Shown piece after piece: positions 20,543 to 56,343 of a stretch of DNA of 64,000 bases; position 1 is the stretch's first letter; each line of letters begins with the position of its first letter. The position numbers and the translations under genes were made by a program. The notes beneath the pieces are model-generated. The model ran no database searches, was not told the origin of the DNA, and saw only the letters and a list, made by a program, of their open reading frames with translations. The stretch lies in sequence record NC_052654.1. One strand, 5' to 3'. The DNA is from Escherichia phage vB_EcoM-Ro121c4YLVW.

Positions 20543-20741
20543 GACTAGGATTCATAGCAAAAGCTTTGAAAGTTGTTATGTCATGACTAACATTAAAACT
20601 AACACCTTTTACTTTCTCTAGTATTTGAACTTTTGTCTCTCCGTCCCACGGTAGGATGATAACACCATCTCCTGTGATCAACCACCAATGGTTCTCTCCA
20701 TCTCGTGAATCTTTTGCTTTGTATAGAAAATTGGAACTCAT
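20526..20741 (-). CDS. hypothetical protein (C-terminal ...LVAEW)
   Basis: ORF track 71 aa; RBS AGGAGGAAG. Confidence 0.4.
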   Translation of the reverse strand: MSSNFLYKAKDSRDGENHWWLITGDGVIILPWDGETKVQILEKVKGVSFNVSHDITTFKAFAMNPSLVAEW

Positions 20742-20934
20742 TCTTCCTCCTGTTCGGTATTATTCACCTGTGAGACACAATGTAACACAAGCTTTGTGAG
20801 TTTGTCAAGGATCTAATTACATTCTACAGAAGAAGAGGGTTAATAACTATAGGAATAGTCTTACTATAGGTGCAATACTAGTTAAGACTTAGATTGATAG
20901 GTAAGACTTATCTTAAACAGATAATTGATAGGTG

Positions 20935-21010
20935 AATCAGCATTGACTTTTTCAAAAAAATATGGTACCCTAAACATATGTTTACGAGCGATAGCGAGTA
21001 GTAGATTTCT
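20935..21010 (+). promoter_or_regulatory. promoter-like conserved element, copy A (TTGACT..TACCCT..CGAGCGATAGCGAGTA)
   Basis: About 60 bp nearly identical to 55716-55790. Confidence 0.35.
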
Positions 21011-21101
21011 ATATAATAATGTTTCATGTTACTCACGATAGTGAGGTATGAAACGTAAGTGAAGGTAGATAAACTATGATCATCTATCTACCATCTATTA
21101 A

Positions 21102-21311
21102 TCAGTATAGATCCAATGTTAGACTAACAGTTATCCAACAAACAATAACAGTCCATATAACAAGTAATGATCTACAAACTACATCCCATTCAAATACATT
21201 GTATGTTAACCATTCTCCCATCACAACACAAGAACCTAACCAACATCCAACAATAACTATAATCCAATAAAAGAATCCTACAGTAGAGTATATAGCAAAA
21301 GCTTTTAACAT
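21102..21311 (-). CDS. hydrophobic membrane protein
   Basis: 69 aa, strong GGAGGAAAG RBS; antisense + ORF 21076-21270 also has an RBS. Confidence 0.4.
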   Translation of the reverse strand: MLKAFAIYSTVGFFYWIIVIVGCWLGSCVVMGEWLTYNVFEWDVVCRSLLVIWTVIVCWITVSLTLDLY

Positions 21312-47290: not shown

Positions 47291-47537
47291 TTTGTAAAGA
47301 AATGTAAAGATAAAATAATCGCTTGCTTTCCTGGCTGGATCTGTTATTCTTATTACATGGCGAGGGGACACGGGAGCGCGAGACAAACACCACCCCTGCG
47401 CGTCATTCTCTAAATGAGAATGATTATCATTTACCTTATCAAATAAGAATCAATCTCATTTATAAACCTAAATGCGAATCATTATCATTTGCATTTCCAT
47501 ATGAGAACTCTTCTCATTCCCATCTGCATAAATTTTT

Positions 47538-47740
47538 GTAAACTTTAAATTTTGCTTTTGTACTTTCATTTTTGTAAAAGCAAAAAAACTTTAAATACTG
47601 TGGGCGCGCAAAATTTTTAAAATTTTCCTTGACTTTTGAGTTTTGTTTTGTATCTGACATTTTAAGATAATTTTCCTAAACTTTAAATTTTGGTTTTCAA
47701 CTTTCACTTTTGTAAATTCTTAAAAAGTTTAAATAATTTG
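47538..47740. repeat. two about 63-bp direct repeats rich in A-tracts plus short TTTGAGATAA repeats (iteron-like)
   Basis: Copies at about 47538-47600 and 47677-47740. Confidence 0.55.
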
Positions 47741-49055: not shown

Positions 49056-50251
49056 GTTTCCTCCTGTAATGTTCCACCATAAAGTTTATAAATGTTTTGT
49101 ATTGAGGCCATGCAAGATAACTCTACTGTTTCTGTGTAGCCATCTGGCATAGAATATTTGCTCACTGCTTCCGTGTGAAGGACACGCTTACAACGCTTTT
49201 CTGCATCTTTGCATTGCTTCACAGTAGGGAAGTGCCACACTTGGACCTGTTTCATAGTAAACACATTACGACTATTTTGTTTTTTGATACGGCGATCACT
49301 ATTATTGGCAATTCCAAATTTCAAAGCACAGAGAATACCTTGTTCATCATGAATGTGGTTAATGTAACATTGTTGTTGTGTCTGGTTAGCACATTGCGGA
49401 CAACCAGTGCCATGATTTAACAAACCACTGGCACGTCCTATTTGTACCCCATGTTTCTTACATCCATATTTAAACTTACCTAATCTTACAGACGGTTTCC
49501 CGATCCAACCTACCCAGATATACCCTTTCCTTTCTACTGCCTTTTTTACCCTATAGGTAATCTGTGCTTCTGTGTAATGACAGTTAGTTGCACAACGGCA
49601 AGGAATCTTCCCTTGTTTAAGGTCATTCCCTGCGACATAAAACTTACCATCACACACCCCAGCTTGCACATACTCATCGTGAGAGCAGGCAGGACACTCT
49701 ACACACCATAAAGAATCGCGGCCTCGTTTTTTATCTGTTTTAGTGAAGATTGTACCCTCTTTAAACTTTCCTGTATTAATGAAGTCTTGTATGTGCTGAT
49801 CGTCTGGAAGTATTTTAGAATTCCTAGATCTTTTGTTACCGCATTTAGGACAACCACTACCACCCTTAAGATTATGAAATGTTAATGTTCGCCATTCCCC
49901 GTGCTCAGGACAAAGGTTGATCATCTTTGTATGTACACCTATAAACTCTCCATTAATGCCTAAAATCTTGATTCCCTTAGCTTCAGCAATAGGCTTACAT
50001 TCCGAAAGGTAATAATCTAGGTTTTTACTGTTGTCTTGTCTTGCTTTCTCATTTTTGCACCTAGGGCAACCAGACTTACCACGTTTAAAATTGGCAAATG
50101 TGGATGTTCTCCACTCCCCATGATTAGGGCAGAAGTTGATCATCTTCGTGTGCACACCTTTAAATGGCTCTACAATCCCTATAATCTCATATCCTTTAGC
50201 TTCCGCTATTGGTTTACATTCTCCTATATACTGTTCTAACGTCTTCGCCAT
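49049..50251 (-). CDS. multi-zinc-ribbon protein with internal tandem duplication; possible nuclease-like C-terminal domain
   Basis: Two about 80-aa repeats ending CPxHGEWRT..F.N.K.G.SGCPxC; further CxxC pairs; C-terminal FGIANNSDRRIKKQNS region. Confidence 0.5.
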   Translation of the reverse strand: MAKTLEQYIGECKPIAEAKGYEIIGIVEPFKGVHTKMINFCPNHGEWRTSTFANFKRGKSGCPRCKNEKARQDNSKNLDYYLSECKPIAEAKGIKILGINGEFIGVHTKMINLCPEHGEWRTLTFHNLKGGSGCPKCGNKRSRNSKILPDDQHIQDFINTGKFKEGTIFTKTDKKRGRDSLWCVECPACSHDEYVQAGVCDGKFYVAGNDLKQGKIPCRCATNCHYTEAQITYRVKKAVERKGYIWVGWIGKPSVRLGKFKYGCKKHGVQIGRASGLLNHGTGCPQCANQTQQQCYINHIHDEQGILCALKFGIANNSDRRIKKQNSRNVFTMKQVQVWHFPTVKQCKDAEKRCKRVLHTEAVSKYSMPDGYTETVELSCMASIQNIYKLYGGTLQEETC

Positions 50252-55185: not shown

Positions 55186-55394
55186 GTGGATGGATTAAAG
55201 TATCTGGTACCGAGGATGTTCCTATCGGAGAGTGGCTTGTAATCATGGCAAACGGCAAGAAGGGATTCTGTGAAGTTAACAAAACACGCAATGGCACGAT
55301 AGCTGTTATCAATGGTCATTTTTATTTTGACTTGGCACCTGTGATCGCATACCATGCACTACCAACATATGAAGAGGAGATTAACAATGGCTAA
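55182..55394 (+). CDS. hypothetical protein
   Basis: ORF track 70 aa. Confidence 0.4.
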   Translation: MSGWIKVSGTEDVPIGEWLVIMANGKKGFCEVNKTRNGTIAVINGHFYFDLAPVIAYHALPTYEEEINNG

Positions 55395-55710
55395 CAAAGA
55401 ACCACATGTATACACTGCACTGGTAAAGCACTTGAACAAAGAACGTAACAAGATCATTGCAGATTATCGTAAATTTAAACGTAGTAGTCTAAATCGTAAA
55501 TACATGCCACATGCAGCTTTTGACGCTACACGTGCAGTGTTTCGTGCAAAGATTGCAGAAATGGATAATCTGCTTAAGCTTGCACGATTATCTATTCAGG
55601 CATCCAAAGTAACAGGAGTCACTCACTTCTTTGACTTCGATACTAAAGCACTATATGCACCAGAAGCAGGTGAACAATTGATTTATCTACTTACCAAAAA
55701 TAAGTGTTGA
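55387..55710 (+). CDS. hypothetical protein
   Basis: Start at ATG after GAGGAGATTAAC. Confidence 0.45.
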   Translation: MANKEPHVYTALVKHLNKERNKIIADYRKFKRSSLNRKYMPHAAFDATRAVFRAKIAEMDNLLKLARLSIQASKVTGVTHFFDFDTKALYAPEAGEQLIYLLTKNKC

Positions 55711-55715
55711 CTTTT

Positions 55716-55790
55716 TTCAAAAAATATGCTACCCTAACCCCGAAGGGTCGAGCGATAGCGAGTATAGATTATGTAATAGATTAATCTCTA
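55716..55790 (+). promoter_or_regulatory. promoter-like conserved element, copy B
   Basis: TTGACTTTTTTCAAAAAATATGCTACCCTAA...CGAGCGATAGCGAGTA, homologous to 20935-21010. Confidence 0.4.
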
Positions 55791-55879
55791 TCGTTAGATG
55801 TTCGAAGAACAGAGATTTAAGTACTTGTTCTTATCGGTAGATGATCGTAAGATCAAGAACAATAATAGGAGAGTGTGTT

Positions 55880-56077
55880 ATGTTAGTCAGTGAAATACTA
55901 CCTGACTCTAATGGTAATCAGATCACTATTGATTGGTTTCCTGGTACTGGTACACTAGATCTAACTGCTGAATGGTCTGGTGATATTTATGGAGAAGGTG
56001 TATTATCATTGTCTACAGAACAAATGATCATCCTTCGTGACTTCTTAATTAGTTTAGATCTAGGAGAAAACAAATGA
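55880..56077 (+). CDS. hypothetical protein
   Basis: Start at ATG after AGGAGAGTG. Confidence 0.45.
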   Translation: MLVSEILPDSNGNQITIDWFPGTGTLDLTAEWSGDIYGEGVLSLSTEQMIILRDFLISLDLGENK

Positions 56078-56343
56078 GTAAAACTTCTGTTGAGTTTATC
56101 GAGAAATCCCCTGTTCCAAAGTTATACCGTTTATCTGAAATTGAACCTATGTCTGTTTTCTATTACTACAACTCAGAAGTAAATGAACAAGAACGGGACT
56201 ACTACTTAGCTACAGATACAGGTGCAGTTTGCTTAACAGGTTCTCGTGCAGGAGAATACATTGCAAATAGTCGTTTTAATGAAGCAGATTCCTGTTGGGC
56301 TAAGGTTGAAACTAAGATCGTCATCAACATCATCAATCATTAA
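56074..56343 (+). CDS. hypothetical protein
   Basis: ORF track 89 aa. Confidence 0.45.
   Translation: MSKTSVEFIEKSPVPKLYRLSEIEPMSVFYYYNSEVNEQERDYYLATDTGAVCLTGSRAGEYIANSRFNEADSCWAKVETKIVINIINH

Follow-up and report, generated by a model that had tools for sequence, protein, structure and literature searches.

A three-copy promoter-like cassette with an invariant hairpin in Phapecoctavirus and related phages: a candidate second sigma-70 promoter class

A stretch of 64,000 nucleotides from Escherichia phage vB_EcoM-Ro121c4YLVW (NC_052654.1), called the window here, carries two copies of an element of about 58 bp in which the parts of a sigma-70 promoter are followed by a small hairpin of fixed sequence. 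The window is 99-100% identical to the Escherichia phages ESCO13 and phAPEC8_ev052, and its source belongs to the genus Phapecoctavirus (ESCO13/phAPEC8-like) in the subfamily Stephanstirmvirinae. A third copy lies elsewhere in the ESCO13 genome, and the three sites are syntenic in distant relatives. The reading that we favour, with a probability of about 0.5, is that the element represents a second class of sigma-70 promoter that puts a fixed hairpin tag on the 5' end of its transcript, and that the first copy is the gene of a small or antisense RNA. Cassettes of promoter plus stem-loop are already known, and so are phage small RNAs. What is new is a class with three copies per genome, spread across the subfamily, in which the TACCCT hexamer is invariant, along with a tandem-G.A mini-hairpin in such a cassette, the conserved antisense placement of the first copy and a link to the non-coding RNAs of bacterial islands.

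Anatomy and conservation of the element

Both window copies are on the plus strand, as are all of their parts described below. They occupy 20943-21000 (copy 1) and 55707-55764 (copy 2), or 20943-20998 and 55707-55762 when counted through the end of the hairpin. The order in each is TTGACT, a 17-bp spacer ending in TGn, TACCCT, A, 11-12 variable nucleotides and CGAGC-GATA-GCGAG. The 31-nt promoter part, TTGACTTTTTNNAAAAAATATGNTACCCTAA, is found in the window only at 20943-20973 and 55707-55737 (expected number 0.00). The 16-mer CGAGCGATAGCGAGTA has exact matches only at 20985-21000 and 55749-55764, and when up to three mismatches are allowed there are still 2 matches against 0.16 expected from shuffles. 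Thus, the claim of the initial annotation that an element of about 60 bp is present twice on the top strand is borne out. That annotation put the second copy at 55716-55790. A copy is indeed there, but this start is 9 nt too late and misses the -35 hexamer.

The -35 hexamer TTGACT of copy 1 lies at 20943-20948 and the extended -10 sequence TG(G)TACCCT at 20963-20971 (TG at 20963-20964, hexamer at 20966-20971). In copy 2 the -35 hexamer (55707-55712) overlaps the stop codon of open reading frame (ORF) 55354-55710, and TG(C)TACCCT is at 55727-55735 (hexamer at 55730-55735). The hairpin CGAGC-GATA-GCGAG, referred to below as HP2, follows at 20985-20998 and at 55749-55762. Transcription is predicted to start at 20978 in copy 1 (an A preceded by T) and at 55742 in copy 2 (a G preceded by C), in each case the seventh nucleotide after the -10 hexamer.

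A whole-genome scan for further copies, which had been proposed as a check, found one more in ESCO13, making three in all. This third copy is more diverged and lies outside the window, at 56253-56310 of KX552041.2 (L004:6253-6310), where it reads TTGACT-17-TGCTACCCTAG...CGAGCGCAGCGAG. A scan of IMG/VR with the pattern TACCCTA...CGAGCG..GCGAG then gave 3 matches in each of three further complete contigs of about 150 kb. Comparison of the flanking proteins, which are just 30-60% identical, established that the three loci in these contigs are syntenic with those of ESCO13. The non-redundant family assembled from IMG/VR and metagenome scans, plus BLAST matches in cultured Klebsiella, Citrobacter and Escherichia Stephanstirmvirinae, has 46 members. 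Conservation in related genomes, on which the initial proposal had been made to depend, is therefore found both in a family of this size and in three syntenic sites.

The promoter anatomy holds across this family. A -35 sequence, TTGAC or TTTAC, is present at 17-18 bp from TACCCT in 46/46 members, and this hexamer was not part of any search pattern. The TG is shared by the two window copies and by every phage copy retrieved in a scan that did not require it. After the -10 hexamer, position 6 is a pyrimidine in 45 of the 46 members and position 7 a purine in 42. This looks like a canonical start context, and the predicted start sites given above are drawn from it. Within the element, specific positions are invariant while the bases between them vary. 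The promoter-like character proposed at the outset is supported by the universal -35 sequence, by the TGn where it was not imposed and by the signature at positions 6 and 7.

HP2 has the general form CGAGC-G(N)NA-GCGAG and is 13-14 nt long. Its stem consists of C-G, tandem G.A and A.G, G-C and C-G pairs, with the tandem G.A in a 5'-CGAG-3' context on both sides, and is closed by a GNA or GNNA loop. The loop always begins with G and ends with A in the 46 members (GAA 23, GATA 14, GCA 5, GAAA 2, GGGA 1, GTAA 1). The hairpin begins 11-16 nt after the -10 hexamer, which corresponds to 4-9 nt into the predicted RNA, and it is always on the non-template strand. The stem is often lengthened by flanks of differing sequence (TGCC/GGTA, TACC/GGTA, TTAA/TTAA, TCCTAT/ATAGGA), and in copy 1 the flanks UUA/UAG can do this. 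With the flanking pairs included, RNA parameters give a predicted folding energy of -4 to -8 kcal/mol. The second box of the initial annotation, given there as a linear motif (CGAGCGATAGCGAG), is better described as this hairpin, because the conserved structure lies inside the box.

What about the nucleotides between the two boxes? These 11-12 nt differ between the window copies but are palindromic in each: AAACATATGTTT in copy 1 (20972-20983) and ACCCCGAAGGGT in copy 2. This palindrome, HP1, is the "short hairpin" of the initial annotation. It is real in the window but is not a conserved feature. The hairpin potential of 19 distinct spacers does not significantly exceed that of shuffles (Fisher p = 0.09), and the 5' half of HP1 lies upstream of the predicted start.

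The favoured reading can now be stated in full. Each genome in Stephanstirmvirinae would have three self-contained transcription cassettes, each with an extended -10 promoter for host sigma-70 (TTGACT, 17 bp, TGn, TACCCT) that starts transcription 7 nt past the hexamer, at a purine. The transcript would then bear the invariant 13-14-nt hairpin 4-9 nt from its 5' end, as a tag that protects that end. It is probable that one specific factor reads the hairpin, because its sequence is fixed rather than covarying. Such a factor would distinguish the three units from the early ones of the phage, which number more than 14 and have a different, freely covarying 5' stem-loop. Copy 2 would head an operon for replication and nucleotide metabolism, and copy 3 a block of tRNA, terminase and structural genes. 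Copy 1 would not be an mRNA promoter at all, but would drive a short structured RNA of about 80-120 nt (HP2-HP4-HP5, see below) that is antisense to early transcripts.

Three loci in the phage and a related module in bacterial islands

The genes around copy 1 run leftward, and those around copy 2 run rightward. Copy 1 is housed in an unannotated gap of 360 bp (20742-21101) amid leftward early ORFs, and it was pointed out at the outset that it faces against the surrounding genes. This is also true of its orthologues in distant relatives, which are always oriented against their neighbours and antisense to early genes. Loci of the copy 1 type keep two further hairpins after HP2, ahead of the end of the convergent gene. 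The first, HP4 (GTTTCATG...CATGAAAC type; 21021-21054, plus strand), has homologues of the form TTTCATG-N5-CATGAAA in most relatives and in bacterial islands. There is a compensatory change from U-A to C-G in one relative (L016), and the arms are re-paired in the window and in L042. The second, HP5 (GGTAGATA...TATCTACC; 21064-21092, plus strand), ends 9 nt before the stop codon of the convergent gene at 21102-21311 (minus strand), and its place in relatives is taken by a long stem of different sequence. A scan of IMG/VR for the copy 1 hairpin motif CATGTTASTCAYGAWAG gave only chance matches besides the known loci L027 and L042. The Rfam covariance models had no match in the whole window at the gathering score or in 20700-21200 at E<=5, and a tRNA scan of the window had none either.

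The initial annotation suggested that copy 1 fires towards an antisense ORF at 21076-21270 (plus strand). This ORF is present in the window, but it is rejected as a target because relatives carry stops in it, after 22 and 17 codons in L042 and L228, respectively. It is the overlapping leftward ORF that is conserved as a protein. The best reading of copy 1 is that it is a candidate antisense regulator or small RNA gene.

Two other sequences share the gap with copy 1. The 9-mer ATTGATAGG, of which there are only three in the 150-kb genome, forms a direct repeat at 20894-20902 and 20925-20933, 31 bp apart and just upstream of the copy 1 -35 hexamer. Its 8-mer core ATTGATAG is upstream of copy 1 in relatives too, in either orientation, and the repeats may be a regulator-binding site. 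On the minus strand, a promoter-like site at 20808-20779 (TTGACA-18-TACATT with TG) is back to back with copy 1, with 135 bp between the -35 hexamers. This is probably a restart promoter for the leftward genes past the gap.

Copy 2 is located between two rightward genes, about 1.8 kb into a block that encodes helicase, ribonucleotide reductases, primase and polymerase. The rightward gene that was said to follow it is present, in keeping with a promoter and leader. This gene, a homologue of ESCO13_00244 at 55880-56077, probably starts at 55880, which is preceded by AGGAG, and not at 55841. The leader would then span 55763-55879 (plus strand). It contains three segments able to pair 1-2 or 2-3, GAAGAACAG (55804-55812), CTTGTTCTT (55824-55832) and AAGAACAA (55855-55862), just before the ribosome-binding site, and so looks like an attenuator. 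The arrangement is conserved in one relative (L010), whereas others have a different conserved leader hairpin, CTATTCGTTCC...GGGACGGATAG.

Copy 3 is in a divergent region and precedes small ORFs, ten tRNA genes, terminase and structural genes. The copy 3 leader, about 290 nt long, has repeated GTAC and GATC/AGATCT motifs, a pure A/T tract of about 45 nt and a second promoter-like site ahead of the first ORF. The AGATCT clusters and the A/T tract are retained in relatives and give the leader an origin-like look.

The phage also has a different type of cassette. On the minus strand of the window, between 37020 and 46818, there are at least 14 copies of it, one before each small early gene. Each has TTGACA, 16-17 bp ending in TGn, a TAATAT-like hexamer, ..GTAGGG and a GC-rich stem-loop that starts about 13 nt after the -10 hexamer. 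The stem covaries (GCGGCA/TGCCGC, CGGGAA/TTCCCG, GGTGGA/TCCGCC). These are early promoter plus 5' stem-loop units that resemble the PeSL cassettes of T4-like phages. The pentamer CCCTA occurs in both classes, on the template strand just before the stem-loop in the early cassettes (..GTAGGG.. in RNA) and on the non-template strand inside the -10 hexamer of the three-copy element. This may be a coincidence. A 5' hairpin on RNA appears to be the usual style of this phage, because its early transcripts carry a covarying stem-loop at the same distance from the -10 hexamer.

The presence of repeated promoter and stem-loop cassettes elsewhere in the same phage invites a simple explanation, namely that the element is a passive repeat. 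It would be a recombination footprint, a mobile promoter-terminator cassette of the PeSL kind or a terminator for the opposite strand, and would do nothing beyond what an ordinary promoter does. PeSLs share with the element a short conserved early sigma-70 promoter with a stem-loop, repeated in one genome (PMC2839356; PMC4122927), and they are known to mediate shuffling (PMC4122927). They consist of a terminator with a promoter after it, and their many copies are found in hyperplastic regions and are associated with indels (PMC2839356; PMC4122927). In contrast, the element has its hairpin after the promoter, no U-run and an invariant G.A stem; it has three syntenic copies rather than many that border indels, and the phage is not T4-like. 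The early cassettes at 37-47 kb are the closer analogue of PeSLs. A recombination footprint, as suggested initially, is unlikely, given that the three sites keep fixed, syntenic places in relatives whose flanking proteins are only 30-60% identical, and the pattern of invariant positions with variable bases between them also argues against a passive repeat. As for a terminator, a scan of the minus strand did flag copy 2, but by way of the variable palindrome rather than HP2 and with 12 nt between the hairpin and the U-run. There was no such call for copy 1, and a conserved intrinsic terminator on the opposite strand was rejected. Furthermore, the G.A pairs become C.T and T.C on the other strand. 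All in all, a passive repeat is very improbable.

The promoter and hairpin are not confined to phages. They are also found in the chromosomes of Citrobacter sp. OP27 (L070) and Scandinavium (L067) and in metagenomic relatives. These loci, which also include L150, L027/L233/L237/L238 and L079, are small integrative islands of about 9-10 kb, in which the element comes directly after a gene for a DUF6538-type tyrosine integrase. There it opens a non-coding stretch of about 900 nt, the first 160 nt or so of which fold strongly into multiple hairpins with covarying stems. This is followed by an ordinary sigma-70 promoter, small ORFs, an endonuclease VII-like gene, a DUF5906 helicase, a helix-turn-helix protein, a resolvase and an Eco29kI restriction-modification pair. 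No island protein is shared with the ESCO13 genome. Nevertheless, a profile (nhmmer) built from the 5' region of the islands matches each of the three phage copies, and one phage copy is identical to two islands at 38/38 positions. The match to copy 1 extends over about 110 nt and includes HP4. On this profile evidence, copy 1 is homologous to the 5' part of the island non-coding region of about 160 nt. The island leader has no match in 5,426 complete E. coli genomes and no relevant match in Rfam, and the island RNA domain, together with the copy 1 RNA, is a candidate new family of non-coding RNA.

Readings of the invariant hairpin

The core of the hairpin, GCGATAGC in both window copies, fits the consensus of the "mini-hairpin DNA", GCG(N)NAGC (PMC13037366). 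All six loop variants of the family fit it as well, with the core GCGNAGC or GCGNNAGC. The consensus has been reported at the G4/St-1 primase origins, RSF1010 ssiA and the N4 hairpin promoters, and the melting temperature of GCGAAAGC is 76.5 C as DNA versus 39 C as RNA (PMC13037366). Current DNA folding models miss this type of hairpin (PMC13037366), and HP2 was not captured by DNA nearest-neighbour folding. The 13-mer of copy 3, CGAGCGCAGCGAG, is present in the pUC/pBR322 backbone too. That site is probably part of the PriA primosome-assembly region downstream of the ColE1 origin.

Similar cores occur more widely. One is part of a very abundant bacterial repeat, (T)TGTCAT-[5 nt]-GAGCG(N)AGCGA-[5 nt complementary]-ATCT, found in Acidobacteriota, Bacteroidota, Chloroflexota, Planctomycetota, Myxococcota and others (e.g., L069:6560-6660, L098, L102, L149, L146). 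It has the same tandem-G.A/GNA core and a covarying outer stem, is often arranged as convergent inverted pairs 25-40 nt apart and matches no Rfam family. Another is found in HTVC023P/027P-like pelagiphages, where a divergent TACCCTA...CGAGCGAAGCGAG pair forms two inverted TACCCTATCCCCCCCAACGAGCGAAGCGAG copies about 100 bp apart, just upstream of terminase (L006:2033-2161 and about 20 similar IMG/VR loci). The layout recalls paired single-strand initiation sites. This pair was rejected as a distant member of the family, as these copies have no TG and no -35 sequence, and the match may be due to chance because the hairpin core is common.

These properties of the core raise the possibility that HP2 acts as DNA. 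Opening of the promoter, or an R-loop, would let the non-template strand fold into the mini-hairpin, which would serve as a priming or helicase-loading signal akin to single-strand initiation or primosome-assembly sites (ssi/PAS-like). The extra-stable tandem-G.A hairpin would keep the duplex open and recruit machinery, and the copies would be transcription-activated replication origins of the 150-kb phage. Unrelated islands would use the same host-dependent signal, either to replicate likewise or to sense the phage. The exact agreement with the consensus and the greater stability as DNA (PMC13037366) favour this idea, and so does the place of the hairpin, always on the non-template strand and tightly fixed 11-16 nt from the -10 hexamer. 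It would also account for copy 1, which has no gene to express, and is in line with the GATC/AGATCT clusters and long AT-rich tract in the copy 3 leader and with the position of the island element upstream of the DUF5906 helicase module. However, GC skew mirrors gene orientation only and gives no origin signal, and no origin has been mapped in this phage group. Early promoters with an analogous stem-loop at the same distance are plainly mRNA promoters, copies 2 and 3 are correctly placed for operon expression, and the stem extensions include pairs of the G.U type that are typical of RNA. There is also a difference from the known mini-hairpin DNA sites, which likewise lie where nucleic-acid synthesis starts but are used in the form of single-stranded DNA by primases or by a phage RNA polymerase (PMC13037366). 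Here the hairpin is downstream of a complete promoter of the host type, on the non-template strand. The N4 promoters are alike in having a 5-bp stem with a 3-nt GAA or GGA loop, but there is no RNA polymerase among the 572 annotated features of ESCO13 (from the annotation only; no protein search was made). On balance, a role as a single-stranded DNA signal is a minority possibility, and we consider it unlikely.

Another idea keeps the hairpin in RNA but gives it a different partner. HP2 in the nascent transcript might be the site for a processive antiterminator or activator of the phage, as boxB is for lambda N, and the three units would form a co-regulated middle or late class. The islands would have copied the site as a satellite-like sensor of infection. 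The hairpin does resemble the boxB of lambda nut, and HK022 put, in its small size, its GNRA-like loop, its place near the start of long units and its two or three copies per genome. Moreover, its sequence is invariant where that of a mere stabiliser would covary, the units that it heads are either very long (33-40 kb) or untranslated, and a strong hairpin with a U-run lies between HP2 and the first gene in some relatives (L019). This module, identical to one phage copy at 38/38 positions, is all that the islands have in common with the phages, and the islands are found in genera that such phages infect (Citrobacter phage Tr1, Klebsiella phages). What does not fit is that the element differs from lambda nut and HK022 put in sequence, has tandem G.A pairs, is much nearer the 5' end and has no boxA. 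Indeed, a boxA (CGCTCTTTA-like, up to 1 mismatch) was not found near the hairpin in any of the 46 members, apart from one distant chance match. No N-like or Q-like protein was identified, though no protein search aimed at them was made. In addition, the promoter appears to have all that unmodified host polymerase needs, a second, ordinary promoter precedes the genes of the islands, and terminator-like sites downstream of the copies are inconsistently present. An antiterminator site is therefore a doubtful reading, and one that we would put rather low.

Returning to the favoured reading, a tagged transcript from a sigma-70 promoter, the element resembles the extended -10 class in its TTGACT -35 sequence, 17-bp spacer, TG at -15/-14, A-11, T-7 and the pyrimidine and purine at the start distance. 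It departs from that class in the invariant TACCCT, with CCC at -10 to -8, which goes beyond ordinary recognition, and in the fixed hairpin 11-16 nt downstream. As for the tag, 5'-terminal stem-loops that stabilise mRNA, such as that in the 5' untranslated region of ompA, similarly lie within a few nucleotides of the 5' end. Those stabilisers tolerate any stable stem. In contrast, the hairpin of the element has a fixed sequence, and about 7 unpaired nucleotides come before it in copy 2.

Some observations weigh against the favoured reading. TACCCT matches the -10 consensus TATAAT at 3/6 positions only (T-12, A-11 and T-7 are kept), a promoter scan based on the consensus did not include this site, and plain promoter function leaves the invariant CCC unexplained. 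The 13-14-nt core of the hairpin is an instance of a motif whose stability is far greater in DNA than in RNA. No candidate for the factor that would read the hairpin was identified, and a terminator scan found no U-tract terminator after the copy 1 hairpins. Searches of the literature on phAPEC8, Phapecoctavirus, Stephanstirmvirinae and the motif strings found no transcript maps and no earlier description of the element. Finally, ascertainment accounts in part for the constancy of TACCCTA and the hairpin stem, because most members were retrieved with patterns that fix TACCCTA and CGAGCG..GCGAG. This last point is offset by the fact that all complete genomes gave three sites and that BLAST matches, obtained without any pattern, carry both motifs.

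Genome context and implications

Some features of the window concern the genome rather than the element. The window is in the reverse-complement orientation relative to the ESCO13 record and spans the junction of that record. Window coordinates are shifted against those of ESCO13 by amounts that differ by about 1.57 kb between copy 1 and copy 2, and there is therefore an indel relative to ESCO13 between them. Local direct repeats are present at 49858-50164 (family D9; 88 nt, 77% identity, 219 bp apart) and at 47531-47740 (family D11; 72 nt, 82% identity, 138 bp apart).

Many therapy candidates belong to the phAPEC8/phi92 group (Stephanstirmvirinae). Transcription is essentially unmapped in these phages, and the cassette offers a handle on their temporal programme. 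A second promoter class of the kind proposed here would mark three key units, the replication operon, the block of tRNA and structural genes and, within the early region, an antisense RNA. HP2 matches a priming-origin motif and is fixed across distant phages. Whether it acts as RNA or as DNA is a sharp question that can be tested. The promoter and hairpin also head a structured non-coding RNA beside the integrase of small islands that carry defence genes. This points to regulatory cross-talk between these islands and the phages, or perhaps to satellite-like exploitation.

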